This document shows positions 10,114-34,418 of a DNA stretch of 64,000 nucleotides, piece by piece. The translations under genes were made by a program, and so were the position numbers. Below the pieces are notes generated by a model. That model saw only the letters and a list, made by a program, of their open reading frames with translations. It was not told the DNA's origin and searched no databases. The DNA is from Candidatus Heimdallarchaeota archaeon (GTDB lineage: Archaea; Asgardarchaeota; Heimdallarchaeia; Hodarchaeales; Hodarchaeaceae), in contig JBHLSH010000001.1 in NCBI GenBank assembly GCA_048881705.1, positions 96,001 through 160,000 of the forward strand, in the 5' to 3' direction. Position 1 is the stretch's first letter. Each line of letters opens with the position of its first letter.

Positions 10114-11829
10114 TTAAGACTGAGTTGGCGAGATTCGTTTCACGTACCCAAGTTTTCGTAACGCTTCTAAAGATTGATGTTCAAATTCTTGTTCTCTCTT
10201 CGTTATTTTAGCTGCAGTCTCTGGAGAAAGAACATCGGAAATGAAAAGCGCTCGGGCAGTAGGTCGCAATTCCTCAGGAAGATCGAGTATCCCCAATGCA
10301 TCAAATCGCTGGATTTGAACATAACGAGGGGGGAGTGTACAATCACACAAAGATTTGCCGGTTTCTTCTTCCAATTTTTTTGCCAAAGAACGGGGATTGA
10401 TGTTTAGATCTAAGAGAAATTTATGACGAGAATTGTGGGGGGTAGTGAACTCGTATAATAGGAGTTCCTTTGTTTTAGGATCAGAAATGTTCTCTTGTGC
10501 ATATTGACGAAAAATTTCCTCTGGATTTTCGTTTAATCGATTTGTCTCCGTGGCGTATGCTAACAATATTTGGCGTAAATCGTCTCTTACCGTATCTATA
10601 TCGAAAATGTATGGTTTAAAGACCTTTTTCACCAGTTCTTTTGCCAGAGCAAACCCTCCAATTCGGCCCGTCTTAGAGAAGTCGTTTATTGCACTTTCAA
10701 ATTGATCCTCAAACTGGTAAACAAATTGGCTTAGGAGATTACTTAAAGTCTCTGTTTCAACTGGACTGTAAAGGATTCCGACCACGCGATTTCCTTTCCT
10801 CAAAATAATCTTGGTACTGCCATTATCGATGCTTCGTAAATCCCATTCACCACGACGCCCCGCAGTTTCTGATACCATAAGTGCAATGCTATTCAAGGCG
10901 GCCGTAATTAGTGCAGGTTGCTTCATTTCATCTGCAGGTTTTCCAAAGAAGTAATAAAACATAGATTCTCCTGATCTGCGATCTGTAACAAATATTGCGT
11001 TGGGAGGTGCTTCTGTTTGATCTTCCAAGGAGACCGGCTCAAATCGTTCAGTTTCAGCAAAATTATGGAACAGCCTAGCAAAGTCATGAAAAATGGAATT
11101 AATGGGGGAGTGGGGGTTTTCAATGCTAAAAATCCCATCATCCGAGAATAGATTGAGATCGGGTAGCCAAGGAATATAATAAAATATAGGATGTCGAAGT
11201 TTTCCCCTCAATTCCTCTATCTTCTGCTCATACTGTCCTAAAACAACGGGAGGTTTGGCCATATTTACAATAAGGAAAGTAGGGACCGTCAAAAACGCTA
11301 AAAAGTTCTGAATGGTTGATCGGGTCATTTTCAGTGTAGGACTTTTTTCTGTAGAGATAATCCACACCACATCACTCTGAAGAATGGTGGCCATGGTGAT
11401 ACTGCTTTCTTCCAGGTCTACTGGGACAATAAATACAAGTATATCGATTGTATCTTTGAAAAACAAAGCGTTGATCCGGTATTTCACCTGTTCAAGAAGT
11501 GATTTTGATGGAGGTGGGCATCCGGAAGATGGAAGAACACGGACGAAAGTATCCCTGTCGGGATCTTCACTTACAACGAGGGCCTCTCTTACCAAGGTAT
11601 CTTCTGGGATCTCAGAAAGAAAATCACTGCTAGTAAATGGTGATTTCCCATAACTCTGTAGACTATATTGAAGTTCCTCCGTAGTAGAAAAATCGACAAT
11701 AAGAACCCTAAGACCGGGTTTCAGCTTAGCATAAGCCAAGAATGTGTTTATGGCGATTGTTTTTTTCCCAGACCTGGGAGTTCGGGAATAAACCGTGATT
11801 ACTCGTGGAGGAGACATTTTCTTATCCAT
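10114..11829 (-). CDS. Degenerate MinD/ParA-like ATPase domain fused to a longin-like domain and a C-terminal helical/winged-helix region
   Basis: VITVYSRTPRSGKKTIAIN...RVLIVDFS (MinD-like fold, altered Walker A). Then NAIFVTDRRSGESMFYY...LITAALNSIALMVSE...LRSIDNGSTKIILRKG (longin pattern). ATG at 11829 chosen. Confidence 0.7.
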   Translation of the reverse strand: MDKKMSPPRVITVYSRTPRSGKKTIAINTFLAYAKLKPGLRVLIVDFSTTEELQYSLQSYGKSPFTSSDFLSEIPEDTLVREALVVSEDPDRDTFVRVLPSSGCPPPSKSLLEQVKYRINALFFKDTIDILVFIVPVDLEESSITMATILQSDVVWIISTEKSPTLKMTRSTIQNFLAFLTVPTFLIVNMAKPPVVLGQYEQKIEELRGKLRHPIFYYIPWLPDLNLFSDDGIFSIENPHSPINSIFHDFARLFHNFAETERFEPVSLEDQTEAPPNAIFVTDRRSGESMFYYFFGKPADEMKQPALITAALNSIALMVSETAGRRGEWDLRSIDNGSTKIILRKGNRVVGILYSPVETETLSNLLSQFVYQFEDQFESAINDFSKTGRIGGFALAKELVKKVFKPYIFDIDTVRDDLRQILLAYATETNRLNENPEEIFRQYAQENISDPKTKELLLYEFTTPHNSRHKFLLDLNINPRSLAKKLEEETGKSLCDCTLPPRYVQIQRFDALGILDLPEELRPTARALFISDVLSPETAAKITKREQEFEHQSLEALRKLGYVKRISPTQS

Positions 11830-12335
11830 TGATCTGATTATATTCCGATTGAAGGATTGTCTTTGGATTTCAAAGAAACCTTCTATTTGAATTGCGGATA
11901 AATATTGCATCGTCCCGTTTAACTTCTAAGAATAATGCAAAAGGCATTCAGATTTTGTTCAGAAGCTCATCGGGTGCAATTCGATTTGACCTAAACCATA
12001 TGCCGAATAGGAATCGAGGTTGGGCGAGGTTCTAGCCTATCTTTTTTGTTTAGGAATTGGTTGAATTCATAAATGTATTGAAACTCCCTCTAAATAATGT
12101 CACCTAATTGGGCAAAGTTCTTTCACAATTATTCCAGATTCTATTACAACTAGCAGATTACAATATTTAATGGGTAGACTCCATAATTTAGGCGTCAATA
12201 GGCAAGGCTATATTCTTTCTTCCTAATATCGGATATGGCCTTTTCGAGTAGGTTCACTAAATAAGATCCGCTGACAACCTTATAGCTGCCCCTTTATGGG
12301 ACTTAAGGCGATTATCACGCAATGGTCGGATTCAA

Positions 12336-13139
12336 ATGACGGAGACTCAAGATCAACTCCCTGCTATCCAACTGTCCTTAGACGAGGTAGGAATCACCGA
12401 TTTTCAGACACAAATCTCGATTACGAGGGGAACCAAAGTGTATCACTACACTGTCACTGCCAGTGTGGTCATTGATCTTCCCCCTCACCGTAAGGGTGCG
12501 CATATGTCACGCATTGTCGAAAGCATCTCTGAAATTTTAGCGAGTGAGACTCAAACATACTATTCTTTGGAAAAAATGTCTGTACAAGTACTTGAAAGAT
12601 TAAACAAACGACATCCGTTTGAAAATGGATCAGTCCGTCTTGAATTTGTTTTCTTCTCCACTCGTATAACACCCGTTTCAAAACTAGAATCCATTGAGCA
12701 TTATAACGCTACTTTGACAACTTGGTGGGATCAGGGTAATATATGGCATGAATTGACCCTTGGAACCTATGGAAGTACTCTCTGTCCACATGCTTTATCC
12801 CAGAGTACAACCCACCACACGCATATTCAACGGGCGTATGCTGAAGTTCAACTACGAGGTAAGACAAGTGATATTCCAGATATGGAAGATCTATCAAAAC
12901 TATTGGACCAAAGCTTTTCAGCACCCACCTTTTCCCTCCTTAAGGCAGAAGATGAACAATGGGTGGTGAATAAGATGTGGAAAAACCCCCTTTTTGTCGA
13001 GGATGTTACTCGTAACCTGTTGGAACTTGTTTCTACCCAATTTGCAGATAGAGCCCTAGAAATTAGAGCAAAAACCATCTCACAGGAATCAATTCATAAA
13101 CATAACGTTCTATCAAAAGGCAGCTGTAAAACCAAGTAG
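12336..13139 (+). CDS. mptA: GTP cyclohydrolase, MptA/FolE2 family
   Basis: KGAHMSR, TLCPH, HTHIQR, LLKAEDEQWVV...NPLFVEDVTR and SQESIHKHN motifs. Confidence 0.9.
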   Translation: MTETQDQLPAIQLSLDEVGITDFQTQISITRGTKVYHYTVTASVVIDLPPHRKGAHMSRIVESISEILASETQTYYSLEKMSVQVLERLNKRHPFENGSVRLEFVFFSTRITPVSKLESIEHYNATLTTWWDQGNIWHELTLGTYGSTLCPHALSQSTTHHTHIQRAYAEVQLRGKTSDIPDMEDLSKLLDQSFSAPTFSLLKAEDEQWVVNKMWKNPLFVEDVTRNLLELVSTQFADRALEIRAKTISQESIHKHNVLSKGSCKTK

Positions 13140-13166
13140 TGCCCGAGGATGTTCATTCCTATGGAA

Positions 13167-14525
13167 TTAACGGCCTGAGTCTTTCTTCCTGCCAAATACG
13201 GTATCACGAAATTTCCTAGCAGCAGATAGTAACCCAATTTCCTCGACTGCCTTCCTTCCCACACTTACAGCTATATCTGTTTTAGAGATCTCTCCTGACT
13301 TGACTTTCTCCATGTAGCTCACAAGATCCTCGTAGGGTGGTAAAAAGTCAAAACGATAAATTTCGGCTTCCCAATAACCTTTTCCACGTTGGACCTTGTA
13401 GATAAGAATCACGATAACGAGGATAAATACCATGCTAGCCATTGTTAGGTCGTGATAGATTTCAGAAAAGCTAGCGAGACCTCCGAAAAGTTGGGTCCAT
13501 GCAGTTGCCATTCCACTCAAAACCTGAAGCTGGACAAGTTGAAATCCGAGGGCTAATCCCAAATAGATTAAGACGACACCTTCACCCCCTACGAATCCAA
13601 TGAAACGCCCAATACGGAATGGATCCTCGGTTTTCGGATCCGTTGTCTCACTCCCTTTCATTTTGATTCGTCTAGATATATTCTGGGCACTATAAACCAA
13701 GGAAAAAATTACCATGAAATAATCGAAACTGGTTACAATGTTTTCTGATCCACTAACGGAGGTAAGAAAGATCATGATTTGATTAGGTAAGTTCACCAGG
13801 AAAAAGAATCCGAGGGATGTATTAAAAACATCGTCCCCAGTAATAAATCCTCGGACGACCAGGATAACTAAAACTGCTAATCCAGCTCCAATAATTCCCA
13901 AACCGATGTAACTAAGCCGCGCTTGCTCAATACCAATCCCTATCATAATTATATTCCAAAAGATAGAAAAAACCGCCACAAGAGTCATTATTCCAGAAAA
14001 AATGGATTTACGATCTGAACTTGGTTTACCAAGGAATAGGATGCTGCCAGTAACTTTATTGGCAAATAAGCCCTTCGCAAATGCAAAGGATGCCAATGGA
14101 ATTAGAAGGGTCCAACTGAAAAAGGTTATCAACGGAATGAATTGTAGGAATGCATCTGAAATTGGCTGCAGCTCATTCATCTGTTCTGTCAAGAAAAAAA
14201 GGGCCTGCACAATAATTACGACGATGATTAACATACCGAATCTGATAGAGGTACTAAGTTTCTTTGAGAACAATCCTGCCAGAAGAAACCCGATAACGAT
14301 ACTAATCTGAAAAGAAACAATGAATTCTAGCACTTCAGGGGTTAAAATTGTCGAAGCTTGGTCTTGGAACACAATAACTCCCGTGGTAATCAGGGAAGTG
14401 ATGAACAGTACAATTGAAAATAAAATTAGCCTACGTGATAGGAGAATGCGGATTCCACCGAAGATTGTTGATTTTAAATAGTCCCAAAAGGCTTTTTCTA
14501 CATAGCTCACACTTTTTGCCTCCAA
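13167..14525 (-). CDS. Uncharacterised multi-pass membrane protein (about 10 TM)
   Basis: 452-aa ORF with about ten hydrophobic segments; no family recognised. Confidence 0.75.
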   Translation of the reverse strand: MEAKSVSYVEKAFWDYLKSTIFGGIRILLSRRLILFSIVLFITSLITTGVIVFQDQASTILTPEVLEFIVSFQISIVIGFLLAGLFSKKLSTSIRFGMLIIVVIIVQALFFLTEQMNELQPISDAFLQFIPLITFFSWTLLIPLASFAFAKGLFANKVTGSILFLGKPSSDRKSIFSGIMTLVAVFSIFWNIIMIGIGIEQARLSYIGLGIIGAGLAVLVILVVRGFITGDDVFNTSLGFFFLVNLPNQIMIFLTSVSGSENIVTSFDYFMVIFSLVYSAQNISRRIKMKGSETTDPKTEDPFRIGRFIGFVGGEGVVLIYLGLALGFQLVQLQVLSGMATAWTQLFGGLASFSEIYHDLTMASMVFILVIVILIYKVQRGKGYWEAEIYRFDFLPPYEDLVSYMEKVKSGEISKTDIAVSVGRKAVEEIGLLSAARKFRDTVFGRKKDSGR

Positions 14526-14663
14526 TTGAACAGGATTGTTGTACCTATCGTGATGGCATTATCATTTCGGAATGCCCATAAACGTTTAGGCGGGGAGTTT
14601 TTAAGCATTAAAAACATCTTGGAGGAGGAAGAAGAACAGATGAATATGTAAAAGAGGAGAACA

Positions 14664-14990
14664 ATGCAGCTGAAAGAGTTATCTGAGCTAGTAAATCAGT
14701 TCATTATGCGTCAAGGAGGCTATTGGAATCTTCCATGGATGTTGGCAGCCCTAACTGAAGAATTAGGTGAACTTTCGCGAGCCGCTCAAGTTTACGGAGA
14801 CCTGCGAGTACCTCCCGACCCCCGTGCATATCAAAAAAAGCGGCATACAAAGGACGCTCTCCTGGAAATGGCAGAAGAATGTGGAGACCTTTTATTTGCA
14901 CTATTGTGTCTCACGAATTCACTTGGGATTAATTTGGAGGCCGAGCTCCTTAAATCGCTAGAAAAATATTCCACCCGTGCTGATTCATAA
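14664..14990 (+). CDS. MazG-like nucleotide pyrophosphohydrolase
   Basis: LTEELGELSR...EECGDLLFALLCLTNSLGINLE motif. Confidence 0.9.
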   Translation: MQLKELSELVNQFIMRQGGYWNLPWMLAALTEELGELSRAAQVYGDLRVPPDPRAYQKKRHTKDALLEMAEECGDLLFALLCLTNSLGINLEAELLKSLEKYSTRADS

Positions 14991-15122
14991 GATACTAAAA
15001 AGCCGTACAATTACCTTCAACAGAAAAGGGAACCCGTGGTCAGGAGAGAAGATCTGCCGAAATCTTTATTATTTTATACAAGAACTCAGAGTCTATCATC
15101 GACAACTTGGAAGGATGAAAAA

Positions 15123-16550
15123 ATGGCAAGCGCAATCAAAATAGTTGCTGGACTATTCATATTGATCATTGGCCTCCCGATCGTTCTTGCGGGAAGTGCA
15201 ATCCTATTAATTGTCCCCATCTTTACTGATAGTCAAGGTTACTTTATGACTTCATCAATAAACGTTGGTCCATTTGACGGATATGCCGCTGTTCGTTACG
15301 ATATACCGTTAGATGATATTCAAATAGGAGTTGGTGTTGATCCATCAAACTTTATCACACTAAAAATGAATGCTCGTGATGCCAGTGGTAATGATGTCTT
15401 GGCTGGAATACTGCTCGCATCTGAAGCTGATGAGCTACTGGCAAGCGTAAATTACATTCAAATTACGAATCTAAGATTTCTTGAAGATTTTGAGTTTGGC
15501 TCGAGACCGACCACCACAATAGAGATGAATACAGTATCTAATGCTACTACTTGGGCTGCTCCTGACCCCAATTCAGTTAATTGGTTATTACGAGATACAG
15601 ATCAGACTTTTGAGTGGGCTCCCACGCTGGAAGCTCTTTCAGGCGGTTCACTTGCAGTAGTTCTTATGCACGCCAATTATAATACCTTCGATAGCCAATT
15701 AGCTAGTCATGTGCAGATTTCGTTCAGTGTTGGCGCCAGAGTACCTATTGTTGGAGCCATAGGATGGATCTTGGTGATAGTAGGTGGGCTATTCACATTA
15801 CTTGCGGTCATAGTTCTATGGAGTGGAATCCGCAGCAAGAAAGCTCACCCTCAACGGGTTCGCTACTACTACGGAGCCCCTACACAGAGGGTAGACCCGA
15901 TAGCTAGGACGGAACCAAAGTATCAACTTCAATGTAGCAATTGTGGATCGCTAAACGAGCCTGATAGTGCCTTTTGTTCCCAATGCGGTGAAATTTTACT
16001 CTCAGAGGATCGGACAACTGTAGACAAAATGGTCACAGAAAAGAAACTTGAAGTATTTGAACCTACGGGTGAGAAGCTCGTTGTAGCCGATGGATGGTCT
16101 CGATTTTGGTCCTGGCTAATCGATCTCTTGATAGTTGGTGCGATCGCAAATACCTTGACCTTTCTTTTCTTCTTCGGAATTAGGGATTGGTCCTTATGGT
16201 CTTCTGGTCCCCTTTTCGTCTCTTTTACCCCAACATCAGTATTCATGTTTCTGTATTTTTTGTTTATGGAAACTTACTACGGTCAGACCCTCGGTAAAAT
16301 GATACTAAAATTAGAAGTGGTTGCTGAAGAAACAGGTCAACGGCCGACTCCTGGTCAAATCGCTTTATCTGCGTTAGGAAAAGCCTTCTTTTTGCCCATA
16401 GATGTTATTCTGGGTTGGTTTGTCAAGGATAAGGATCAAATTCCGGATCTTGAGCAAAGAGCCACTCAAAAGTGGGCACGTGTGGTAGTAGTTCGTCAAC
16501 AACAGCAAAAGGATGCAAAAGTTCGATTTATCTCCAGTAGAGTCGGGTAA
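15123..16550 (+). CDS. Membrane protein: extracellular domain, zinc ribbon, and RDD domain
   Basis: TM helix then DSQGYFMT; second TM; CSNC...CSQC ribbon; RDD signature SRFWSWLIDLLI...YGQTLGKMILKLEVV. ATG at 15123 chosen. Confidence 0.8.
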   Translation: MASAIKIVAGLFILIIGLPIVLAGSAILLIVPIFTDSQGYFMTSSINVGPFDGYAAVRYDIPLDDIQIGVGVDPSNFITLKMNARDASGNDVLAGILLASEADELLASVNYIQITNLRFLEDFEFGSRPTTTIEMNTVSNATTWAAPDPNSVNWLLRDTDQTFEWAPTLEALSGGSLAVVLMHANYNTFDSQLASHVQISFSVGARVPIVGAIGWILVIVGGLFTLLAVIVLWSGIRSKKAHPQRVRYYYGAPTQRVDPIARTEPKYQLQCSNCGSLNEPDSAFCSQCGEILLSEDRTTVDKMVTEKKLEVFEPTGEKLVVADGWSRFWSWLIDLLIVGAIANTLTFLFFFGIRDWSLWSSGPLFVSFTPTSVFMFLYFLFMETYYGQTLGKMILKLEVVAEETGQRPTPGQIALSALGKAFFLPIDVILGWFVKDKDQIPDLEQRATQKWARVVVVRQQQQKDAKVRFISSRVG

Positions 16551-16578
16551 CCTGATTCTACTTCCCTTTTTCCTTTTT

Positions 16579-17067
16579 TTAACGGCTTTTGGGCTGGGAA
16601 TCTTTTAGGTGCTTTTTTTGGTTCATAAGAAATTCATGAGACTCGTTTAGGACACGCAAGTACCCATCAAACTTCAGCAGGGCTTGGGCCTCGTCATAGG
16701 TTGCCCAGTGTAAATCTGAATGTTCCGCAGAGAGTACAACTTTTTTAGAACTGAAGTGGACAAGAAAAAAGACCACTTTCTTAACGATAGTCTTCTTTCC
16801 ACGTTGAGGAAAGTAAATGGAATCACTGATGAGCCGTTTGACAATTTGGAATTGCGATTGTCCAGTCTCTTCCCGAATTTCCCGGATTGCTGTCTGTTCG
16901 TAAGATTCCCCTTCGATTTGGCGTCCTTTAGGGAAAGCCCAATAGGGATATGGACCATTATGTAAAACCAATAAGTATAACGGTTCTTCATCCTTTTTAA
17001 GATAAAAAGGAACCCCTCCACAAGAAATTTCATCAAACGCAGACGAGGAATCCGCTATGGTAGTCAT
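16579..17067 (-). CDS. Nudix hydrolase (Ap4A hydrolase-like)
   Basis: Nudix box WAFPKGRQIEGESYEQTAIREIREETG; LSAEHSDLHW. Confidence 0.92.
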   Translation of the reverse strand: MTTIADSSSAFDEISCGGVPFYLKKDEEPLYLLVLHNGPYPYWAFPKGRQIEGESYEQTAIREIREETGQSQFQIVKRLISDSIYFPQRGKKTIVKKVVFFLVHFSSKKVVLSAEHSDLHWATYDEAQALLKFDGYLRVLNESHEFLMNQKKHLKDSQPKSR

Positions 17068-17078
17068 ATTAAACCCAA

Positions 17079-18038
17079 GTGTTTAGGATCCGAGTATATT
17101 TAAAAAGCGAACCAAGTAACACGGACTTACAAGGAGGTCTTATTGTGGAGACAAGCGATCCCAAAAGATACCGAATTATCGTGAAAAAGGAAAATCCGGA
17201 CACTGATATATATAATGAGGAAGGGATGTTATACTTCCAGAAGAAGGATCTGTTATTTAGTCCTAGTTCTATGGATCCCTTGAAAGAACGTGTGTATCAA
17301 TTTGGGGACTTGATCGATGTTCAAATTGGTTCCGTTCGTGACGGACTGAGACGAAAGAAGGTTGCTGTGCTTCAATTCGCCAAGAAAAGTGCAAGGGTAG
17401 CCGTATATCTTGAACCAATTGATATAACACCCGAATACCTCCTCCAAGAAATAAAACAGCATCAGGACGATATTAGTAAAGGTTCTTTACCGGGGATTGT
17501 AGGTACACTAATAGAAAAAATAGGAAAGGAAGGCCAAAAGATTGTACGAGAAGTAGGGGCCGTACTAGAATCAACGTCTCGGGAACTAACGCAACTTACC
17601 CAGGCAACGGCGCAATTCATCAAGGAGTCAACTCAAGCGGCAAATCTTTTGGATAGTGAATCGGAATGGAGCGGTACAGATACCAGTAACCTTGATCTTT
17701 CGGAAATTGATGAGATTCTAAAACGATCTTTATCATCGGGCAAACTTGATGCCATAATATCGGGGCTCATGGCCAAGGCATTACTATCCGCCAAAGATCA
17801 GCGGTATAAAGAGGCTCGAGATGCCCTTAAGATTGCACGGGACGCCGCCGAGAGCGCTAAATTAAATGAATACACAGAGCTAGTCGAGGAGAACTTGAAA
17901 GAGGTCGACTCAGCTGAAGCCACTGAGAAGTTTAATCCGCATTTGGATAAAAAAGCTCTGAAATACGCTAGTGAGGCTCGTGAAATTGTGGCAGATTGGG
18001 AATCAACAGCGGAAAAGACTGAAAAAGATCCCATATAG
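17079..18038 (+). CDS. Hypothetical protein (beta-rich N-terminus, helical C-terminus)
   Basis: 319-aa ORF filling the space between two genes; no family recognised. Confidence 0.7.
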   Translation: MFRIRVYLKSEPSNTDLQGGLIVETSDPKRYRIIVKKENPDTDIYNEEGMLYFQKKDLLFSPSSMDPLKERVYQFGDLIDVQIGSVRDGLRRKKVAVLQFAKKSARVAVYLEPIDITPEYLLQEIKQHQDDISKGSLPGIVGTLIEKIGKEGQKIVREVGAVLESTSRELTQLTQATAQFIKESTQAANLLDSESEWSGTDTSNLDLSEIDEILKRSLSSGKLDAIISGLMAKALLSAKDQRYKEARDALKIARDAAESAKLNEYTELVEENLKEVDSAEATEKFNPHLDKKALKYASEAREIVADWESTAEKTEKDPI

Positions 18039-19113: not shown

Positions 19114-19316
19114 CCTCTAAAAGATTCTTCTTCCCTATTATAACTCCCATTGGTACCAAAAAGTTTATTTTGATAATAAAAATAAAATGAGGTCTTAATG
19201 TTCATGAAAAAATTCCTTATTCCCTTTTTAAAAGAAGAAAACGCAAAAAAATACCCTTGAGGAAGATTTCCATAAATTTGGAGTTTAAAAGTGAATTATT
19301 CAAATAATACTAGACA

Positions 19317-19958
19317 ATGAAAATCATGAAATCCCGACTGGGCACCTTTCTGCAAAAGAAGAATGAGGAACCCCAGATCAAAGAGCAACAATTGCCAGGT
19401 GACGAGACGTGGAAGAATGACCTAATCTCATTGTATTGCATCCGTAACCACGATGGGCTGTGTCTCTTTGCTCATCATTTTCAGGTTGCCCGAATTGCAC
19501 AGTTGCATGAACCACAGCTAATCGGTATGGGATTCACTGCAATAACCAGAATGCTTTGTGAGGTGGTTGATAGCAAAGGCCACCTAAGATATATTGACTT
19601 CATCACAAAAAAGGTTTTGGTTGAAGAAAACCAGCATCAGCAATTTCTGACCGTCCTTATCACAACGAGGGATACTCCAATCGTTAGGAAAAAACTCCGG
19701 AAGTTTACCGAGTGTTTTGCTCAAATATTCCAGCTTCAGCACCAAATAAATCTCAGGAAAAACTATATCTCAAAGGAGGATTATGCCCTAGCGTCTGAAT
19801 TCGTCGCCATTATATTTTCAAACAAATCAAATCGCGTTCTGAACCTTTTTCCATTGATTTTCGATTCCATACGAACGGAACAGCCAATTGGTGGGGAAGA
19901 AACCAAAATAGTGACATCATCTAATACGACGCCCGTGAATATCAAAAAGAATATTTAA
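19317..19958 (+). CDS. Longin-like domain protein
   Basis: LYCIRNHDGLCLFAHHF...QLIGMGFTAITRMLCEV...LRYIDF...KVLVEE...LTVLIT...LRKFTECF, the typical Asgard longin pattern. Confidence 0.7.
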   Translation: MKIMKSRLGTFLQKKNEEPQIKEQQLPGDETWKNDLISLYCIRNHDGLCLFAHHFQVARIAQLHEPQLIGMGFTAITRMLCEVVDSKGHLRYIDFITKKVLVEENQHQQFLTVLITTRDTPIVRKKLRKFTECFAQIFQLQHQINLRKNYISKEDYALASEFVAIIFSNKSNRVLNLFPLIFDSIRTEQPIGGEETKIVTSSNTTPVNIKKNI

Positions 19959-20209
19959 ATGGGGAGAAAGGTGTGGCCCAACTGTACAAAAAGGATGAGA
20001 ACCTTTTCTAGTGCAAAAAGAATAGATGTCATTTTCGACACTAGTTAAATAGATAATAGCCATTAAGTATTTATCAGAAACCCTATTTTTCCTGCATTAA
20101 AGAAGAACAGTGGAAATGGTGACATTTCCCCTAAAACACAGATGAAAAGCAGTATAATCTCTGATAAACAATGTAGCGTGCTAGGTATTCACTTGATGAA
20201 GGTTAAAAC

Positions 20210-20671: not shown

Positions 20672-20693
20672 ACTAGCTAGGATAGAAACGAAC

Positions 20694-20873: not shown

Positions 20874-20904
20874 AATCTTGCTATTGAGATGAATTAGTGT
20901 CTGA

Positions 20905-26281: not shown

Positions 26282-26359
26282 CTTCTGTACCTTTAAAGAA
26301 CGTTAAGAAGATTAATGGGATCCATATTAATATTGGTTTGTGTTTCAAATTGAAACCGG

Positions 26360-27538
26360 GTGAAAAATGTGACCAGCCGAAAACGTGTCTTATGTGTAGG
26401 CCGTGAAGTTGGCCCGTTAGGACACCTTCTGAAAGAAACCGTTCCCAACCTCCAAATAGGTGCAATAGATGTCTTAGGTAACATAGACACACGACAATAT
26501 GTTGATTGGGCTTTTTCGGTAGAAAAACAGGTGGCTGATCAATCCATATATCGACCCAAACGCCGAAGTCTCGAGGAACTCCTCTTTGAACTTACTCAGG
26601 TAATGTTGGAAGAAATATCCTTTGATTTAGTTATTCCGTCTTCCCCCTTCCAAACCAAACTGGATTATTTGAAGAAAATTTCGGAGCAAACAGAAGTTTC
26701 AATGCCTGAGGTATCTACACTAGAAAAGGTAACGACTGCCTTCCATTTCGTCACCAATCTTGAAGATTGTTGCCCTTCGTTTCTTCGTGCCTTGAAGAAT
26801 AAGATTTTGATCTCCGAAATAGTAAATGATGATCTCCCTGGCATATTAATTACAGAGAAGGGGAATTTCGTTCTGAAGACTCCATCATATTTGAATACCA
26901 TCAGTTCTCAAAAGTTAGAAGGATTCTATGCACGTACCTCAAACATTCATGTCGCATTCTTTTTGGACTCAGGCCATCAAAGCCAGTTCTGGGGGGTACA
27001 AACCGTTGCTCCCCCATATCATCACCCGATTTTTCCAAATTTCCTAGAGCGAAACAGCCTTATTCCCTATTCAGCTTCAGAAACATCCCCTATATTAGAA
27101 GTCAAACAGTTTGGTCAGGAACTAATTAACAACCTAGATCTCTCAGGTATGATCACACTTTACTTCTGTAAAACCGATCAGCAACTCGTACCCCTCTCTT
27201 GTAGTTTACTCCCAGATGAGAATCTAAGGTTGTGGGGCCGAAATCACCCCAATCTAGTTGTTAAATTTTTGATGACGCCTTCACGTGAATCCAATCCAAT
27301 CTCCCCTCCTAATGATTTTGTTTATCGAATTCCAATTTATTCAAGGTTCCCGCTAAAAGTTCCCTCTTTTCCTGAAGGTGCCTGCAGTCAGAAAAACCTT
27401 GCAAATAGCCTTTCTCACCACGAATACCCCATCTGCGTAATAACAGGGACTGGCGAAACAAAAAATAGCGCAGAAGAACGCCAAATGAAAGAACTCACTG
27501 AGATAACTCGATATTTTGAACTATATGGCCAAGAATAA
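26360..27538 (+). CDS. Divergent ATP-grasp-like protein (COG2232-type N-terminus)
   Basis: RVLCVG...AIDVLGNIDT...DLVIPSSPF resembles the AxDxFGDxD...DxxxxGSGFE N-terminus of COG2232. The core ATP-binding motifs look eroded. Confidence 0.55.
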   Translation: MKNVTSRKRVLCVGREVGPLGHLLKETVPNLQIGAIDVLGNIDTRQYVDWAFSVEKQVADQSIYRPKRRSLEELLFELTQVMLEEISFDLVIPSSPFQTKLDYLKKISEQTEVSMPEVSTLEKVTTAFHFVTNLEDCCPSFLRALKNKILISEIVNDDLPGILITEKGNFVLKTPSYLNTISSQKLEGFYARTSNIHVAFFLDSGHQSQFWGVQTVAPPYHHPIFPNFLERNSLIPYSASETSPILEVKQFGQELINNLDLSGMITLYFCKTDQQLVPLSCSLLPDENLRLWGRNHPNLVVKFLMTPSRESNPISPPNDFVYRIPIYSRFPLKVPSFPEGACSQKNLANSLSHHEYPICVITGTGETKNSAEERQMKELTEITRYFELYGQE

Positions 27539-27780
27539 AAATCCCGACCCTTAAGCGATATCATCATTCCTCCGATATTCAGGTCCGAATTTTATTTTAA
27601 AGCATTAAGACAGACTTTAAGAGTGTGTTTTCAAGTTAAAGCCTAGCTAATGTCTCGATGCGTTCGATAGTTCTGATATTAGTATATATTACTCGCCCAA
27701 AATCATCACATAAAAGAAAACCTTTAAGAGAAAGTCCTTAACATAGGCTTTTAGTGATTCTAGTGTCGAGTACGGGTGAA

Positions 27781-28176
27781 ATGGCTCAAACGATCGCTCA
27801 AGATGCATTCAGAAAATGCCCTGCCTCCTTAGTGTTCAAAATTCGTGGAGGTAAAGGGAGTGTACTTGCCACGGTCTCAAATCTTTCTGAATTAATATCT
27901 ACATTACACGAAATCCCTCCCACGATTGTACATTTCCATGTCTTCCGGGAAACAATGTCGGGCCTGTTTGATGAACAATTAAATGGCCCTGTTGTAAGGT
28001 CAGACATCGCATTGTGGATAAACTACGTTCTGGGAGATGACGAGCTGTCACGAAGAGTGTGGGAAATTGGAAAACGTGAAAAAAACCCACGAGAATTAAA
28101 GAAAAAAGTGATTGAAACACTTAAGGAGCGCGAAAAAGAGCTTAGGATGGTATTGGAGAGATCTGTACGAAGATGA
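27781..28176 (+). CDS. DUF5752-like small protein
   Basis: SNLSELISTLHEIPPTIVHFH...DIALWINYVLGDDELS pattern. Confidence 0.6.
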   Translation: MAQTIAQDAFRKCPASLVFKIRGGKGSVLATVSNLSELISTLHEIPPTIVHFHVFRETMSGLFDEQLNGPVVRSDIALWINYVLGDDELSRRVWEIGKREKNPRELKKKVIETLKEREKELRMVLERSVRR

Positions 28177-28227
28177 GGGGATGGATGTTAAGAATCTTGG
28201 TTATCAAGCGACTCTAACATCATTTAT

Positions 28228-29496
28228 TTGACAGAAGATGATCCGATGTACCTTATTCGTCGCATATTTCGTGTTGATCCACGTATTGAGCTGAAAAAAG
28301 GACAAAAAGCCTTTGACCAGCGAAATTTCAAATCAGCTCTCAAATCATTTGAAAAGGCCTTCAAACGGCTAAGTAACGTTGATATGCAGATAATGGCACT
28401 GGATAACGCTGCGCTTTGTGCAGAAAAGGCTTCCCTGTTTGAGAAGGCCACAGAACTATATTATCAATTAATTCTTCTAAAATTATCCCATAAAACTACA
28501 AAGCCATCTAGATTGGTTATGTCGGACATTAACCGTGCCATGGCGGTAGCCAGATTAAGTCCAAAACCCATCATTCCCATTTCCAAGTTTTTGTTGATGA
28601 AATTCTTGATATTCCTGGGCGAGAACGACCTTGATAAGCTAATCCCGTTTTATGAAAAGCTGAATCACGAGGTAAACGATGAATATAAGGCGGCTATTGA
28701 CACCACTTGGGAACTAATTCACACACAAGATACGTATGTACAGAAAAAACCCCTGCCTGAAATAGATTTGCCTAGGGAGTTTTTATCTGTGAGGCAGGAA
28801 GCAGAGCATTTTATGCAACGCCTTTCCCTGTGCCAGGTAACGTCCCTTACGCTTGATAACTCAAAATCTCTTGAAAAAGGCACGCCTTTCTCAATTTCCG
28901 GATCTTTTACCGTACACGCTGAACTAGCAATCGTATCCATTAGCCTGAGAATTGGCTCACACGGAAGAATAGTATCGTCAAACTTACCACAACTACCCAT
29001 TACCATGACAGAAGGCGCAAGCCAAATGGTACATTATTCATTGATTCCTAATTTACCGGGCAAATGGACCATAGGCCCATTAACTGTCGTTTACAGAATC
29101 CCCGCTGACCATAATACGAGCCAGGAGTATTCTGTGGTCTCAAAAACCCTAATCGCCTCCATCAAGGAAGCACCCCCTGCATTACAACTCTCGATGGTCT
29201 ATGAAACCATGGAAGAAGATCATGAATACACGATTACTATTAGTGCGGAAAACATAGGTAAAACTAGTTTACAGGATCTTAAAATTATTTTGGAAATTCC
29301 AGATGGAGTTGAATTGGGAACCGGTACAGAGCAGAAAACCATTGGTATCTTAGGCCAAGGAGAAGTCTTTTCTTATGAATTAAAGGTACAGTTCTCAATG
29401 GACCGAACGCATTTCGAAGGACATATCCTTAAAGCTGCAGGATATATCCAGAATAAACGCTTAGCTAAATGCTCTCTTAAGATTGGCGGTAGTTGA
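28228..29496 (+). CDS. TPR/alpha-solenoid plus two Ig-like beta-sandwich domains
   Basis: N-terminal TPR helices GQKAFDQRNFKSALKSFEKA. C-terminal GKWTIGPLTVVY and ITISAENIG...LKIILEIPDGVEL (CARDB/BatD-like strands). Confidence 0.65.
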   Translation: MTEDDPMYLIRRIFRVDPRIELKKGQKAFDQRNFKSALKSFEKAFKRLSNVDMQIMALDNAALCAEKASLFEKATELYYQLILLKLSHKTTKPSRLVMSDINRAMAVARLSPKPIIPISKFLLMKFLIFLGENDLDKLIPFYEKLNHEVNDEYKAAIDTTWELIHTQDTYVQKKPLPEIDLPREFLSVRQEAEHFMQRLSLCQVTSLTLDNSKSLEKGTPFSISGSFTVHAELAIVSISLRIGSHGRIVSSNLPQLPITMTEGASQMVHYSLIPNLPGKWTIGPLTVVYRIPADHNTSQEYSVVSKTLIASIKEAPPALQLSMVYETMEEDHEYTITISAENIGKTSLQDLKIILEIPDGVELGTGTEQKTIGILGQGEVFSYELKVQFSMDRTHFEGHILKAAGYIQNKRLAKCSLKIGGS

Positions 29497-29544
29497 TGGT
29501 AGAACCTTTTTCATTCATTCAGAGAACAGAAAAGGCAGGATATG

Positions 29545-29829
29545 TTACTTAAGCCGCGTTATAACCATTAATTCCCCCTTCAACTGCTCTATCGTAGCCC
29601 TCGGAAGGTGGGGTGTGACAGAATAGAGCGTTTGTCTCATATCATTTAAACAGGGATATTTTCTGACATATTCCTGATCAAGTAGCAATTTTAACGCATA
29701 CCTGACAGACCGCGTCGAGCACGAGACTTTTTTGACGATTTCTTTTGAGCTCAAAGGACCTTCGTTAATGATGATACTGTAGACTTCTTTGGCCGATCGT
29801 GGTAAATTGGCTAAAACCGTCTCCGACAC
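29545..29829 (-). CDS. Small archaeal winged-helix DNA-binding protein
   Basis: LPRSAKEVY...EGPLSSKEI...RSVRYALK...NDMRQTLY; paralog of 863-1141. Confidence 0.82.
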   Translation of the reverse strand: MSETVLANLPRSAKEVYSIIINEGPLSSKEIVKKVSCSTRSVRYALKLLLDQEYVRKYPCLNDMRQTLYSVTPHLPRATIEQLKGELMVITRLK

Positions 29830-29957
29830 TAGATAACCATCCTAGAGCTTCAATGGCTTCTTTAACTGTCAAATGCTCATTCTTTTAAATAAAGTTGTCT
29901 TTTAGTGCAATCGTAGAGAATGGGAACTCGAGTGCGGATGGATTAAAAAATCGACTT

Positions 29958-32150
29958 CTAAGTTGGTCGCAATCCAAGTCGCGTAATAAATGTGCTGTAA
30001 TACGCGTAGCAATCAATCGACTCTTTCTCTCCTAGTGTCACAGAAGAATGCACAATACGGTTCCTTATGTTTCGGTAATGTATAATCTTTTTGCTACTAG
30101 GTAGATCATATCCATGCGTTCTGAGTTCTTCAACCTGCATTGTAAAATCTGGCTTAGATAGGAGGTTCAGCGAGACAATCTGCTGGTAACGGACAAAAAG
30201 GAGGTTTTTGACCGCTGTGTCAGCTTTTATTACAAAAAGCTCGTAGTTTTTTTCCTTAAAGGCCCGCTTGGCTTGATTCCATAATACCCGGACATAATTG
30301 ATATTCTTGATTATTTGATCAAGATCTAATTGCTGAACAGGTTCTATTCCAGAATCGGAAGCTCGCTGGTAGTTTTGTATAACATAAGAGAGGCGATTAT
30401 TGAGCTGATTATATGCAAAAATTGGAGACACATTCACGAATAGCACAGGAATTACCAGAATGGTCAGGGGGAGAATCAGAACAAGCAGAAGATTTGTAAT
30501 TCCGTCTATATAGAAGGGGAGGAAATTCTGAGAGAGAAACAGATAGCTTAGAAGATTTAGACTCGTATAAAGGATCGCGCCTATAAAAAAATAGATTAGC
30601 CACTCCACTTTGCGGCGTAACCGTCTGGAAAATACCAAGGTTTCTTCTTCAGTTGATTCAACACAACTAATCAGAGCATAGGTGGATACAGGAATACTCG
30701 CGACTCTGACTAGGATAGAATCTTCCGGAACTTCGTCTAGTTTATATATTCCTCTAAAACTATCTTTGAGCAGTTTATAGGTTTCCTTTCGGTGTGCTGG
30801 AACGGACCATTGGTTGACCCGAAACCATTTTCCTTTAATATCCAGGTAGATCAGGTAGCCCGGGAGTGCTACTAGGGTACTGATTATCAAGAGAAGTCCA
30901 GAGACATCCCAAACGAAAGGACGGGGTGGTTGAATCTCTAAATGAATATAAAACACTCCTATGGCATTATCTTGGGGAGATACAACAAGATAATAGGTTC
31001 CTATATCGAGTAACAGTGTGTTTGTTATATTTATTTCGCCATCACGATCCTGCTGTTCTTCAGCTGCCCTAAATATCGGATTTTGCCCCCCTTCAGCAAA
31101 AATTTCGACAATTGCCAAATCAAGAACTTCTGATGTGGTACGATTATCTTCAAATAGCCAAATAAATATCCCCGTCCGACTATGATTCACCTGAAACGCA
31201 AAATAGTATTCCTTGGCGGTCCACTCCTGATTAATTCTCACAGGTGTTGTATGGTTATCCTGTAGCTTCCCTGCCGTTTGAAAGCTATATAAAGCCGGCG
31301 CCGCGTTAAAAGAAATATTGTACAATCCTATCTGGGAGGTCTCTTGGTTATGTTCGATTTCAATGATGTAAGTGGCTTGAGTTCCAGCATTCCAAGAAAA
31401 GTTATACCCCCCACGAATTTCCGTAAACGGGAGAACAGGGTTTTGGAGAAAATTTTCTCTATATATTCCCAATCGCGCCTTAAAAAGCACACTTGAGTCA
31501 ACTTCCTTTAAAACTAGGGTTCCATTCTGGTTTTTATTAAGAAAGATTTTCCAATAATGAATTTCATGGGGAATCGTGAAATTAGCCATCCATGGGATTG
31601 GTTCCACTTCAAGGGCCTTATCCTCACTATACGAAACCATTGGAATGGAGACCAAGATTTCGTAGGTCGCATTCATGTCTCTAACAATTCGTGTATCATT
31701 AACTTGGAGGATCCAATCCCCTGAGATTGGGGTAGTGAATGATCCCAAATAGGGAGAAAATCCACTGGAGTCGCTACGGATATGATTGAAGGATACCCCG
31801 TCAGAGGTGTAAAGCCCTACCGTGAATTCAGATTTCGAATATGGAGCTTTTGGATCCACAGAAAAATAGATTACCTGTTCTATAGGGATGTTTTCAATTC
31901 TCCAGTTATGTGACATTGAAATATTCGAAAACACTCCGATTTGAGGAATTCCGTGTGTCAAAATGACTTGATTGGGAAAATCATTCGATTCTTCTTCAGC
32001 AGAAATAGGTATCACGTCTATAAAAGAGGAAAGGAGTACCGAAATTATCGCCAACCACATTAAAAAGAGTTTAGGAGAATTTTTTCTCGAAATATTTCGC
32101 TTAGGGATACCAATGAATGCCAAAGTATGATTTTTCATTGTTGTAGACAC
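29958..32150 (-). CDS. Signal peptide, extracellular beta-sandwich repeats, 3 TM helices, and a C-terminal HEPN-like domain
   Basis: Hydrophobic N-terminal segment; repeats ending in GxW/Y.L.V or Y.I.I (PPC-like); three TM segments; C-terminal AKRAFKEKNYELFVIKADTAVK...YRNIRNRIVH with the RxxxxH motif at 30065-30048. Confidence 0.75.
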   Translation of the reverse strand: MSTTMKNHTLAFIGIPKRNISRKNSPKLFLMWLAIISVLLSSFIDVIPISAEEESNDFPNQVILTHGIPQIGVFSNISMSHNWRIENIPIEQVIYFSVDPKAPYSKSEFTVGLYTSDGVSFNHIRSDSSGFSPYLGSFTTPISGDWILQVNDTRIVRDMNATYEILVSIPMVSYSEDKALEVEPIPWMANFTIPHEIHYWKIFLNKNQNGTLVLKEVDSSVLFKARLGIYRENFLQNPVLPFTEIRGGYNFSWNAGTQATYIIEIEHNQETSQIGLYNISFNAAPALYSFQTAGKLQDNHTTPVRINQEWTAKEYYFAFQVNHSRTGIFIWLFEDNRTTSEVLDLAIVEIFAEGGQNPIFRAAEEQQDRDGEINITNTLLLDIGTYYLVVSPQDNAIGVFYIHLEIQPPRPFVWDVSGLLLIISTLVALPGYLIYLDIKGKWFRVNQWSVPAHRKETYKLLKDSFRGIYKLDEVPEDSILVRVASIPVSTYALISCVESTEEETLVFSRRLRRKVEWLIYFFIGAILYTSLNLLSYLFLSQNFLPFYIDGITNLLLVLILPLTILVIPVLFVNVSPIFAYNQLNNRLSYVIQNYQRASDSGIEPVQQLDLDQIIKNINYVRVLWNQAKRAFKEKNYELFVIKADTAVKNLLFVRYQQIVSLNLLSKPDFTMQVEELRTHGYDLPSSKKIIHYRNIRNRIVHSSVTLGEKESIDCYAYYSTFITRLGLRPT

Positions 32151-32376
32151 TTTTTATCCATTTAATTCTCCTAGAGGTTCTATGGATCAGGATTTCTGAA
32201 TAAAAGATATGATAACGAGAGAACAATAACAATGTTTTAAAAACTCGGGGGACAGGATTCTACCGAGTAATGATTGATACTCAATTTCCCAGCTTAAAAA
32301 AGAATTTCATTCCGCGCTGATCGAAACCACAGTTTGGTAAACATAAAAACCATAATAGGCAAATCTGGCGATAAAT

Positions 32377-33009
32377 GTGCATTCTTCGGTTCGACTTGTT
32401 AAGAAAAGGCTTCAATTAAGTCAAAAAAAGTGGAACCAAATCCAAAACCACTCATTACGGACAGTTAATTCGATCCTAACAGTACTTTCACGACTGAATA
32501 TGATTCAAGCGAGACCCGAGGTTTTTTCTGAACTGTTATTAAAGGAATTCGTGGATATACCAGATCGCCTTGCATATCGACTTGCTGACATTATCAATAA
32601 AAACCTTGCAGACTTGAATCGCTATCTCTCTCAATTTTCAGATGTATTAAAAGAGATGCGGAAAATCGAAACACAATTTCGGCTTGATTTTTCAGAGCTT
32701 GCCAAGAAAAAGGTTTTAGGTGAAAACCCTGTTGGAGGAGAGCATGATCTGGAGGTTATTGAGCAGGCTGAGCTGACTATCCAAAAGATCGTAGATATGT
32801 ACGAAACGGAATTGTCTCTTCGTCAGGCAATCATTGCTGAAATTCAGGATATGACAGCCTTACAACCAGCTCATATCACGGCTTACTTGGTCTTATGGTC
32901 TTCCGAAATCTATATCGAGCCAAACAAGATCGTCGAGCTGATTGAAGAGTTTACCCACGTTGAGAAAATCTATCGCCAATCCTATGATTCTTTACCAAAA
33001 TCACGCTGA
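32377..33009 (+). CDS. All-helical protein, candidate C1orf109/AIRIM (CA109-like) homolog
   Basis: KKWNQIQ...NSILTVLSRLNMIQ...LKEFVDIPDRL...DMYETELSLRQAII...LVLW pattern; resemblance recalled from memory only. Confidence 0.55.
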   Translation: MHSSVRLVKKRLQLSQKKWNQIQNHSLRTVNSILTVLSRLNMIQARPEVFSELLLKEFVDIPDRLAYRLADIINKNLADLNRYLSQFSDVLKEMRKIETQFRLDFSELAKKKVLGENPVGGEHDLEVIEQAELTIQKIVDMYETELSLRQAIIAEIQDMTALQPAHITAYLVLWSSEIYIEPNKIVELIEEFTHVEKIYRQSYDSLPKSR

Positions 33010-33014
33010 AGAAT

Positions 33015-34418
33015 TCAACTTGCGTGGTAATTTCCTCTGTGTAATAAGGTGTTAATTGACCCTTTTTGGAATTCTTGGATCAAAACTTGTTGAACTAGAT
33101 CATTAACGGCATATGCAGGTTCTCCTTGTCCCAGGAGGGTTTTAACTAGATTCATCGTAAATTCGAGATCTTTACGCGCATGATGTTCATTACCTTCTGC
33201 ATATATGGCTACTCCTCTAAGTTGTGCATTATCAGGGCCGGTTTGGGAAGTAAACACACATTGTTTGTCGCCAGCGGTCAAATGATCTGGAGTATGTCCA
33301 ATGAGATCGGAACTCATTGATTGAATTGCCGAAAATAACCCCGTGTACAAACAAACTTCTTGCCCAGCTGGACGATGGCTAGCAAAAAGAGGTAACCCTC
33401 CATCTTCAAAGATATAGACTTCGGACTCAGTAAAAATCTGTCCTAGTACTTTGTATCGCCCATCTTCATCTGGGGAGTTTTCTATATCTAAAACGCTAGT
33501 ATCGACACCATTAACGCCTTGTGAAGTATCCAGCGAGGTTATCAAGCTATCTATCTCTTGGAGCGGGGCTGGCAATACTGCTTCGATCGGATGGTTATCT
33601 GTCAGCATGAGAGCCATTGTATATTCGGGAAAACAAGACCCTACTACATTCGAAAAATGATTTTGGAGATCTTTTCCAAATGTGGTCGAGAGTCGCCCAA
33701 CAATTCTGTTCATTTCTTTCAAACTTAAAGGATCCTGCGAATGGACAGTAACGAAGAGAGTTTCGAGTTTTTCAAGGTTTTCTGGTTGACTTATAGCCAA
33801 CATCTGTCCTGCCTTATCTATTGCATCCATCGTACAAGTTTCAAGGGCGGGAGATGATGAAAATCCGTAGAATAATTGTTCTGTGTTTCCAAAAATCTGA
33901 ATGAGATCAGAAAACGTTACACCCAATCCCTTTGGAGATTGAAAAACTGAGATAATGGAATCTAGAAGTACTAGAAATTCCCAACGAGATTGTTCTTCTT
34001 TGGAATCTAGGTGGAAATAGCTTCCTGGAATTAATTTGTGATCTTCCTTTTCGAAACCCGTTCCTATGTCAATCAAAAGAGGGATTGCCCCATTACTTCG
34101 GATTGAGTCAAGAACTCGCATCAGGATTGGAAGTGTAGTTGTATCAGAGGAATTAAAAATAAATAGCAAAAAATAGGCGTTTAATAGATTATGTACTTGC
34201 GACAAAACGGCTTCAGAATTGAAAACAATTATTTGATCACACAGATCATCCGAGACAGGATGAGCGGTAAGGTGCAATAGTGGCAGACGCGCCTCTTCTC
34301 TTACATCCAAGTACTCTCGGATGATATCCAAGGCGGAAGGAATATCTCCGATGCAGACTATTTTTCCACGAGGTCGAAAATACCCTAATAGGGCACTATC
34401 TTCAATAGTCATGTTCAA
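33015..34418 (-). CDS. Degenerate FtsZ/tubulin-like domain fused to a C-terminal longin-like domain
   Basis: KIVCIG; LLFIFNSSDTTTLPIL in place of GGGTGTG; SPKGLGVTFSDL in place of PGLINVDFAD; TLFVTVHSQDPLSLKEM...YTMALMLT (FtsZ C-domain). Then EVYIFEDGGLPLF...LYTGLFSAIQSMS. Confidence 0.65.
   Translation of the reverse strand: MNMTIEDSALLGYFRPRGKIVCIGDIPSALDIIREYLDVREEARLPLLHLTAHPVSDDLCDQIIVFNSEAVLSQVHNLLNAYFLLFIFNSSDTTTLPILMRVLDSIRSNGAIPLLIDIGTGFEKEDHKLIPGSYFHLDSKEEQSRWEFLVLLDSIISVFQSPKGLGVTFSDLIQIFGNTEQLFYGFSSSPALETCTMDAIDKAGQMLAISQPENLEKLETLFVTVHSQDPLSLKEMNRIVGRLSTTFGKDLQNHFSNVVGSCFPEYTMALMLTDNHPIEAVLPAPLQEIDSLITSLDTSQGVNGVDTSVLDIENSPDEDGRYKVLGQIFTESEVYIFEDGGLPLFASHRPAGQEVCLYTGLFSAIQSMSSDLIGHTPDHLTAGDKQCVFTSQTGPDNAQLRGVAIYAEGNEHHARKDLEFTMNLVKTLLGQGEPAYAVNDLVQQVLIQEFQKGSINTLLHRGNYHAS

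Follow-up and report, generated by a model that had tools for sequence, protein, structure and literature searches.

In eukaryotes, the regulators of Rab, Rag, and Arf have longin and Roadblock domains as their platforms, and few known archaea are as closely related to eukaryotes as the Hodarchaeales. For Asgard archaea, an extensive expansion of Roadblock and longin domains, together with domain shuffling, has been reported (bioRxiv 10.1101/2020.10.19.343400; PMC10933270). Asgard fusions of GTPases with longin or Roadblock domains were described as well (PMC10933270; bioRxiv 10.1101/2020.10.19.343400), and the longin fold is a platform for small GTPases (PMC3747258, PMC10933270). The present study deals with two genes, termed gene A and gene B, on a 64,000-nucleotide stretch of DNA (the window) from Candidatus Heimdallarchaeota archaeon (assembly GCA_048881705.1, contig JBHLSH010000001.1, positions 96,001 to 160,000). 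Each of them joins an inactivated nucleoside triphosphatase (NTPase) fold to a longin-type domain. An earlier sequence-only reading of this DNA had described them as a dead MinD and a dead FtsZ. According to this proposal, their longins pair, bridge MinD-like and FtsZ-like scaffolds, and present a face resembling a guanine nucleotide exchange factor (GEF) to small GTPases, so that both proteins form one division-to-trafficking adaptor. We lean towards another reading, in which Asgard longin shuffling gave rise to genes A and B independently, gene A acting with a Ras–Roadblock–Yip1 module and gene B originating from an FtsZ–longin fusion.

Genes A and B share their general layout, an NTPase fold followed by a longin- or Roadblock-type platform, with the known Asgard fusions and with the Rag GTPases, in which a G domain is followed by a C-terminal Roadblock. 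Unlike in these proteins, the NTPase domain is catalytically degenerate and belongs to the ParA/MinD (SIMIBI) or tubulin class instead of being Ras-like. Foldseek aligned gene A to Rag chains over 355–400 columns with a root-mean-square deviation (rmsd) of ~21 Å, and the likeness is therefore one of domain order only. The gene cluster around gene A combines a GTPase, two Roadblocks, a longin protein, and a Yip1 protein, in the manner of MglA–MglB, Ragulator–Rag, and TRAPP or Mon1–Ccz1 with Rab and Yip1. In contrast to these modules, it is known from genes alone, its longin protein contains a pseudo-ATPase, and its composition matches no single complex. No description of an FtsZ–longin or MinD–longin fusion was found in the literature searched. 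The fusions thus appear to be undescribed, whereas the claim of the sequence-only reading that they constitute one system is unsupported.

Gene A encodes 567 amino acids within an open reading frame (ORF) spanning 10114–11910; ~60 database homologues start at the methionine at 11817, not at 11910. It is single-copy in the 3.96 Mb assembly to which the window belongs. Its 61 homologous clusters derive nearly all from metagenome-assembled genomes (MAGs) with Hodarchaeales or Heimdall labels, and homologues of both genes come almost exclusively from MAGs under the labels Hodarchaeales, Hodarchaeota, or Heimdallarchaeota. Pfam and NCBIfam scans with the whole proteins A and B and with their domain pieces gave no usable match. 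The AlphaFold2 (AF2) model of gene A was built on a 58-sequence alignment and reached a predicted local distance difference test (pLDDT) score of 71.

By sequence homology and by fold, the N-terminal domain of gene A (residues 1–258) is a member of the ParA/MinD superfamily. In structural comparison with VIA, the domain scored Z 18.6 to ParA (8ray_A, 231 residues aligned), 17.2 to FlhG (4rz2_A), and 16.6 to MinD (4v02_A), and the Foldseek E value was 1.5e-9. Aligned by hhalign with the profile of Asgard KGGxGKT ATPases, the domain profile gave a probability of 98.9% (E 8.6e-17), and 15 of 58 family members matched Pfam CbiA weakly. The structure search retrieved ParA, FlhG, MinD, Soj, and BcsQ at about equal similarity. 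The label MinD is therefore too specific, and the fold is that of ParA/MinD/FlhG in general. This weakens the MinD/FtsZ division-pair logic on which the proposed adaptor was built. The domain continues into the longin and not into a MinD-type terminal helix. The Min partners MinC and MinE, as well as ParB, were not seen among the neighbours scanned, no genome-wide search having been made.

Compared to the deviant-Walker-A ATPases of this group (PDB 8ray, 4rz2, 4v02, 1g3r), with which the domain shares fold and detectable sequence homology, it is joined to a longin followed by a helical tail, and its motifs are replaced throughout. In the columns of the profile alignment, Walker A reads SRTPxxGKKT where S-KGG-GKTT is expected: the signature lysine is exchanged for threonine, the two glycines for Pro-x, and the Mg-binding threonine for lysine. 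Similarly, the DxD switch motif reads DFS, and the Walker B aspartate aligns with a nearly invariant isoleucine, I130. Judged from these motifs, the assignment of the domain as catalytically dead is well founded; this part of the "dead MinD" label stands. The orthologue in the sister family (genome G286), which is 28% identical, shows a likewise degenerate Walker B region lacking the aspartate.

Residues 271–405 of gene A are predicted to adopt a longin fold. The AF2 model shows the order strand–strand–helix–strand–strand–strand–helix–helix with a five-stranded sheet, one strand being of low confidence. The best VIA matches were the longins of Sec22 (3egd_C, Z 12.5, 123 of 137 residues aligned) and of VAMP7 and SYBL1 (12.4), followed by synbindin (11.7) and by CPLANE and AP-3 sigma (11.5); sedlin, AP sigma/mu, and SRX also fell within the span of 10–11.7. 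Altogether, the domain resembles eukaryotic longins (Sec22, VAMP7, synbindin/TRAPPC4, AP sigma/mu, SRX) with Z scores of 10–12.5 over 111–131 aligned residues, but differs from them in a sequence identity of merely 6–16% and in the missing SNARE, adaptor, or TRAPP context. The remaining residues (406–567) gave no match in a Pfam scan. They contain the conserved cysteines C491 and C493 (invariant columns) and close with a strand–helices–strand unit in the AF2 secondary structure, which may resemble a winged helix.

Gene B encodes 465 amino acids, is single-copy in its genome, and has 68 homologous clusters, which place its start at 34412 and not at 34418. It is monocistronic, lying tail to tail with the gene at 32377–33009 and head to head with the one at 34678–36597; the flanking genes are C1orf109-like and archaeosine tRNA-guanine transglycosylase-like. 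No GTPase gene was found among the neighbours of gene B that were scanned. The AF2 model was based on 64 sequences (pLDDT 71.6).

The N-terminal part of gene B has an FtsZ fold in which the GTP loops T1, T4, and T7 are lost. VIA scored residues 11–272, which comprise both subdomains, at Z 16.3 to FtsZ (247 residues, rmsd 3.4), 14.0 to CetZ, and ~13 to tubulins, with a Foldseek E value of 3.5e-6. When the family profile was searched against PDB sequences, all 25 matches were FtsZ (best E 1.4e-3). Furthermore, for the C-terminal subdomain, the hidden Markov model (HMM) of the clade's own FtsZ matched members of the gene B family at 1e-7 to 1e-8. The T1 loop reads CIGDIPSA (GGGxxN in FtsZ) and the T4 loop NSSDTTT (GGGTG[ST]G), both loops being located after model strands 1 and 4 by reading and secondary structure rather than from a significant alignment for the N-terminal subdomain. 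The T7 loop aligns as G-V-(T/S)-F-S-D with NxDxxD, and the final aspartate alone is retained. Residues 316–450, which follow an unconserved acidic linker, show the topology strand–strand–helix–strand–strand–strand–helix–helix in the AF2 model and are assigned as a longin-type domain; the list from the structure search with the whole protein was filled by FtsZ-domain matches. The central observation of the sequence-only reading, two inactivated NTPase folds that each carry a longin or, for gene B, a probable longin, was borne out by structure searches, profile searches, and the loss of motifs.

It could be argued that the dead NTPase domains are decaying relics without a role, or that the genes are pseudogenes. 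The catalytic motifs are gone, and in both proteins conservation peaks in the longin and is lower in the N-domain, with 29 invariant columns of 258 against 43 of 135 in gene A and 11 of 262 against 42 of 135 in gene B. This explanation is hardly credible, as both families keep intact frames in ~60 sequence clusters each at 45–67% identity, the folds are confidently predicted, and the degenerate P-loop of gene A is itself nearly invariant (Y10, S11, R12, T13, G17, K18, and T20). Moreover, the degenerate state is common to the 28%-identical orthologue.

Relatives of its longin point to a probable origin of gene B. A phmmer search of this domain against 1.84 billion representatives returned 10 matches, of which the repeat proteins P0134, P0135, and P0139 were judged spurious. 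The closest outside relative, P0132, is a canonical FtsZ of 572 amino acids (Pfam Tubulin 3.9e-40, FtsZ_C 1.5e-19) with the motifs GVGGGGNN, GGGTGTG, and NLDYSD intact, whose residues 432–553 form a B-type longin (E 1.5e-22 with the B-type HMM). P0132 and P0141–P0145 all match Pfam Tubulin at ~1e-40 and FtsZ_C at ~1e-19 and carry the B-type longin; GVGGGGNN, GGGTGTG, and NLD(Y/F)SD are intact wherever the sequence covers them, the incomplete P0141 and P0144 being without the first. A targeted search recovered such motif-intact proteins as a small family from MAGs with a Hodarchaeales label, ~575 amino acids long when complete, and the NCBI name of its members (P0132, P0141–P0151) is "cell division protein FtsZ". 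The family was absent from all 83 genomes of the class that were searched. These proteins share with gene B the two-part design and the longin subfamily, whereas their FtsZ part is canonical and gene B lacks the three loops and is shorter. Gene B is thus a degenerate relative of the motif-intact FtsZ–longin family of other Hodarchaeales MAGs.

In the sister family, the position that corresponds to gene B by synteny (genome G286, L058:5325-6812, plus strand) encodes a 495-amino acid protein with a B-like C-terminal longin, the N-terminal part of which matches neither the gene B profile nor FtsZ. A third gene of the tubulin family was found 16 kb upstream of the window (L049:2634-4034, minus strand, corresponding to G000:C1:78634-80034). 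It encodes 466 amino acids, matches Pfam Tubulin (E 3.3e-15), retains a GxGxxGxN-like loop, is syntenic across the clade, and lies in an apparent operon with proteins of 1185 and 358 amino acids of unknown family; a longin ORF (G000:C1:75685-76458) is located ~2 kb away. As a relative of gene B it was rejected, no pairwise similarity being found.

The longins of genes A and B are distant homologues of different subfamilies. With the narrow family alignments, only the first helix was aligned (P 0.047, not significant). The A-type profile was then widened with 20 domain segments from other Asgard genomes and the B-type profile with the few outside relatives from the phmmer search. The widened profiles aligned in hhalign at 96.6% probability (E 5e-10, 103 columns), and 96% was retained when the gene A family was left out. 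The motifs G.plf, L.(T/S)(G/A)..., and I..G..k, from which the sequence-only reading had deduced one shared module, sit in aligned columns, and on this basis the common origin of the two domains was upheld. Neither family HMM found the other family at E <0.03, which argues for separate subfamilies. A feature search in a protein atlas, which provides leads only, assigned one top archaeal cluster to both longins (score 0.91) and also a "Roadblock/LAMTOR2, Fuz_longin_1" cluster (0.85 and 0.88).

A shared longin is not a specific link in this genome. Among its six-frame ORFs, 37 longin-type domains (an approximate count) and 35 Ras-like GTPases were found. This amounts to one longin gene per ~107 kb and, by simple arithmetic, to a chance of roughly one in three of meeting another within 21 kb. 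Indeed, a third longin gene without a Pfam match lies between genes A and B, 7.4 kb from gene A. Of 301 Asgard genomes, 119 contain A-type longins, which mostly form the C-terminal part of otherwise unrelated proteins of ~350 to 1400 amino acids. The longin is therefore a promiscuous module, and neither its sharing nor the 21 kb spacing is specific.

Three clade relatives (L078:159-1835, L081:2469-4181, and L076:2507-3712) combine an MFS-transporter domain with a C-terminal A-type longin, which suggests transporters under longin/GTPase control. Two ORFs with a C-terminal longin in the genome studied here (C47:20971-22677 and C35:4903-6591) are close to these fusions in length.

The neighbourhood of gene A is conserved. 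The gene for a Ras-family GTPase sits 322 bp downstream on the same strand, and this position is kept in 6 of 6 relatives fetched (73–79% identity). Together with the two Roadblock genes, gene A, and Yip1, it takes up no more than 5.7 kb, and the same six relatives show synteny, in the order Yip1, Roadblock (109 amino acids), Roadblock (135 amino acids), TrmB (opposite strand), Ras, gene A, and folE2. The two Roadblocks are paralogues separated by 3 bp; the pair is present in the sister family as well, and the shorter one is 84–89% identical across the clade, except for one close relative at 98%. Within the clade, the GTPase and the Roadblocks (~80–89%) are both more conserved than gene A (54–62%). 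Furthermore, 6 of the 37 longin genes of the genome are located ≤3 kb from a Ras-like gene, compared to 5.8% expected (P 0.019). The Ras GTPase, the two Roadblocks, and the Yip1 protein are likelier partners of gene A than gene B is, and a link of gene A to a small GTPase is plausible.

For gene B, such a link is plausible through a different route, independent of that of gene A. The metagenome contig L125 carries an ftsZ gene whose product is a probable motif-intact relative of gene B, with a Ras-family gene upstream on the same strand at a distance of 321 bp. The canonical FtsZ loci of the clade showed no Ras-family neighbour. Thus, the connection to small GTPases drawn by the sequence-only reading remains reasonable for each protein separately, but not as a joint surface of A and B.

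Several observations weigh against the reading we prefer. The 322-bp gap between gene A and the Ras gene holds TATA-like elements, so that co-transcription is only putative, and elsewhere among Asgard genomes, 20 A-type longin loci are without a Ras neighbour. Rate covariation was calculated for 11 genes in 11 genomes, as a crude test on gene pairs that depend on one another, and is taken solely as giving no sign of coupling between A and B. Gene A scored −0.17 with Ras and −0.70 with the near-invariant Roadblock, although the pair of gene A and Yip1 ranked second (0.54). The longin fold of gene B rests on model topology and remote homology. The FtsZ on L125 ends with the contig at residue 261, and its longin is deduced from 74% identity to P0142. 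Finally, genes A and B share their clade distribution, as a shared system would predict.

The same 20 loci fit a rather unlikely account in which gene A is unrelated to its neighbour GTPase and acts as a ParA-like positioning or DNA adaptor. A pseudo-ATPase dimer and the winged-helix-like tail would then bind a surface or DNA, the longin serving as a regulatory or dimerisation domain. The ParA/MinD fold and the winged-helix-like secondary structure of the C-terminus agree with this, as does a protein of another Asgard genome, G007 (L070:2045-2983, minus strand, 313 amino acids), that joins an N-terminal A-type longin to winged-helix domains, recognised by weak matches to DUF742 and HTH_47. However, a Ras gene adjoins gene A in every relative examined, the ATP motifs required for ParA-type positioning are gone, and the C-terminal winged-helix fold is putative. 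In the "conservons" of actinobacteria, DUF742 is found together with genes for Roadblock and Ras-like proteins.

The Ras-family gene on L125 is 46% identical to the Ras neighbour of gene A, which raises the question of whether one Ras-like GTPase pathway uses both A and B as effectors or regulators that do not touch each other, the neighbour of gene A for instance signalling to B. The related longins, with their fold known as a small-GTPase platform (PMC3747258, PMC10933270), and the common clade distribution would suit such an arrangement, but we consider it unlikely. An identity of 46% is at the level of paralogues, since true orthologues of the neighbour reach 73–79%; none of the 35 Ras-like ORFs of the genome is singled out as common to both, and the covariation of gene B with Ras was −0.22. 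Still more doubtful is a wider version, in which NTPase folds for filament formation and positioning (FtsZ, ParA/MinD) are wired to Ras-like signalling via longins and A and B are the arms of one GTPase-controlled spatial system. In it, FtsZ or tubulin-like polymers would serve as the docking site of the dead FtsZ–longin, and the Ras–Roadblock–Yip1 membrane module as that of the dead ParA–longin.

The direct bridge, an A–B longin heterodimer joining both scaffolds behind one GEF-like face, is very unlikely. Besides the homology of the longins and the common dimerisation of longin domains (PMC10933270), its arguments are distribution and distance. Full-length gene A was found in 18 of 20 clade genomes and full-length gene B in 20 of 20; the sister family has a divergent orthologue of gene A and, for gene B, the longin part alone is recognisable. 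A loss of gene A in G119 and G220 was rejected, as these genomes lack the Ras and folE2 orthologues too and G220 contains a run of N, which indicates an assembly gap. Co-occurrence, proposed earlier as a check of the bridge, is uninformative either way because the two families are restricted to one and the same clade. In seven relatives, genes A and B are 21–27 kb apart and the whole block is collinear. In G244, by contrast, they are separated by 1.4 Mb, each with its own neighbours intact. In the window, unrelated housekeeping genes separate A from B (folE2, MazG, an RDD protein, NUDIX, an M28 peptidase, a GNAT acetyltransferase, a HEAT-repeat protein, and an aminotransferase). The residual rate correlation of A and B was −0.29, rank 44 of 55 gene pairs in this weak test. 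Complex prediction with residues 262–410 of A and 312–465 of B, each with its own alignment, scored 0.08 against a mark of 0.32, a value that speaks neither for nor against contact. Given the number of longin ORFs in the genome, one of them between A and B, the different subfamilies, and an N-domain of A that is not specifically MinD, nothing tested favours a direct A–B bridge, and the pairing of the two longins into one adaptor was not supported.

In the reading we prefer, gene A would be a non-catalytic scaffold of ParA/MinD fold that carries a longin followed by a helical tail. Its most likely partners are the downstream Ras GTPase, the tandem Roadblocks, and the Yip1 membrane protein. Its longin, probably a dimeric platform, may bind the GTPase or the Roadblock regulators of the latter, and the protein could act as an effector or as a scaffold for GEF or GTPase-activating protein (GAP) activity. 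Gene B would derive from an FtsZ paralogue that acquired a C-terminal longin. This fusion appears to persist with intact GTP motifs in other Hodarchaeales, while in the present clade the GTP loops presumably decayed and the longin was kept under strong constraint. For gene B, a role as adaptor is probable, with the longin carried by an FtsZ-shaped, non-hydrolysing body that possibly still docks on FtsZ or tubulin-like polymers. The coordinates of all features are compiled in Table 1.

Table 1. Features of genes A and B and of their surroundings (positions in the window)
Feature	Position	Strand	Evidence
Yip1-domain membrane protein, N-terminal zinc ribbon	6174..7088	-	Pfam Yip1 E 6.7e-10, Zn_Ribbon_1 E 2e-7; syntenic
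Roadblock/LC7 protein, 109 aa	7175..7504	-	Pfam Robl_LC7 E 2e-16
Roadblock/LC7 protein, 135 aa	7508..7915	-	Pfam Robl_LC7 E 1.7e-11; 80-83% identical in relatives
TrmB-type winged-helix regulator inside gene A cluster	8730..9188	+	Pfam TrmB E 2.5e-8; syntenic in relatives
Ras-family small GTPase	9252..9791	-	Pfam Ras E 1.2e-43
Gene A, 567 aa: pseudo-ParA/MinD, longin, helical C-terminal region	10114..11817	-	ORF and translation, homologues, AF2
Gene A residues 406-567, helical region with putative winged-helix-like end	10117..10602	-	AF2 secondary structure
Gene A residues 271-405, predicted longin domain	10603..11007	-	VIA, invariant columns
Gene A residues 1-258, ParA/MinD-fold domain, degenerate motifs	11044..11817	-	VIA, Foldseek, hhalign, Pfam CbiA
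Third longin gene, 213 aa, N-terminal A-type longin	19317..19958	+	Broadened A-type HMM E 2.9e-23; B-type HMM E 0.002
210-aa protein, CA109-like (ribosome-biogenesis protein C1orf109-like)	32377-33009	+	Pfam CA109-like E 1.9e-8; syntenic in relatives
Gene B, 465 aa: pseudo-FtsZ, C-terminal longin	33015..34412	-	ORF, homologues, AF2
Gene B residues 316-450, longin-type domain	33063..33467	-	AF2 topology, hhalign, invariant columns
Gene B residues 11-272, FtsZ/tubulin fold, both subdomains	33597..34382	-	VIA, Foldseek, PDB profile, FtsZ HMM

Elsewhere in the window, an ORF on the minus strand (59603–60304) contains a GxxxxGKT P-loop and NKxD, and may be the MglA-like GTPase mentioned by the sequence-only reading. 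A chaperone cluster of DnaJ, DnaK, and GrpE, followed by the gene of a helix-turn-helix regulator, occupies 37716–41445 (minus strand).

Genes A and B are new variants of the known theme of longin shuffling in Asgard archaea, and a single system made of the two is conjectural. A single A–B adaptor would matter more if true, but has no support at present. Matching Asgard GTPases to their regulators by gene order is usually not possible (PMC10933270); gene A, with its conserved Ras, Roadblock, and Yip1 genes, is a rare Asgard case in which gene order pairs a GTPase with candidate regulators. A protein of the tubulin superfamily with a longin for a C-terminal tail would physically link a cytoskeletal fold to small-GTPase signalling in a prokaryote, and this would hold for the intact forms beside a Ras-like gene as well as for the GTP-dead form of this clade.

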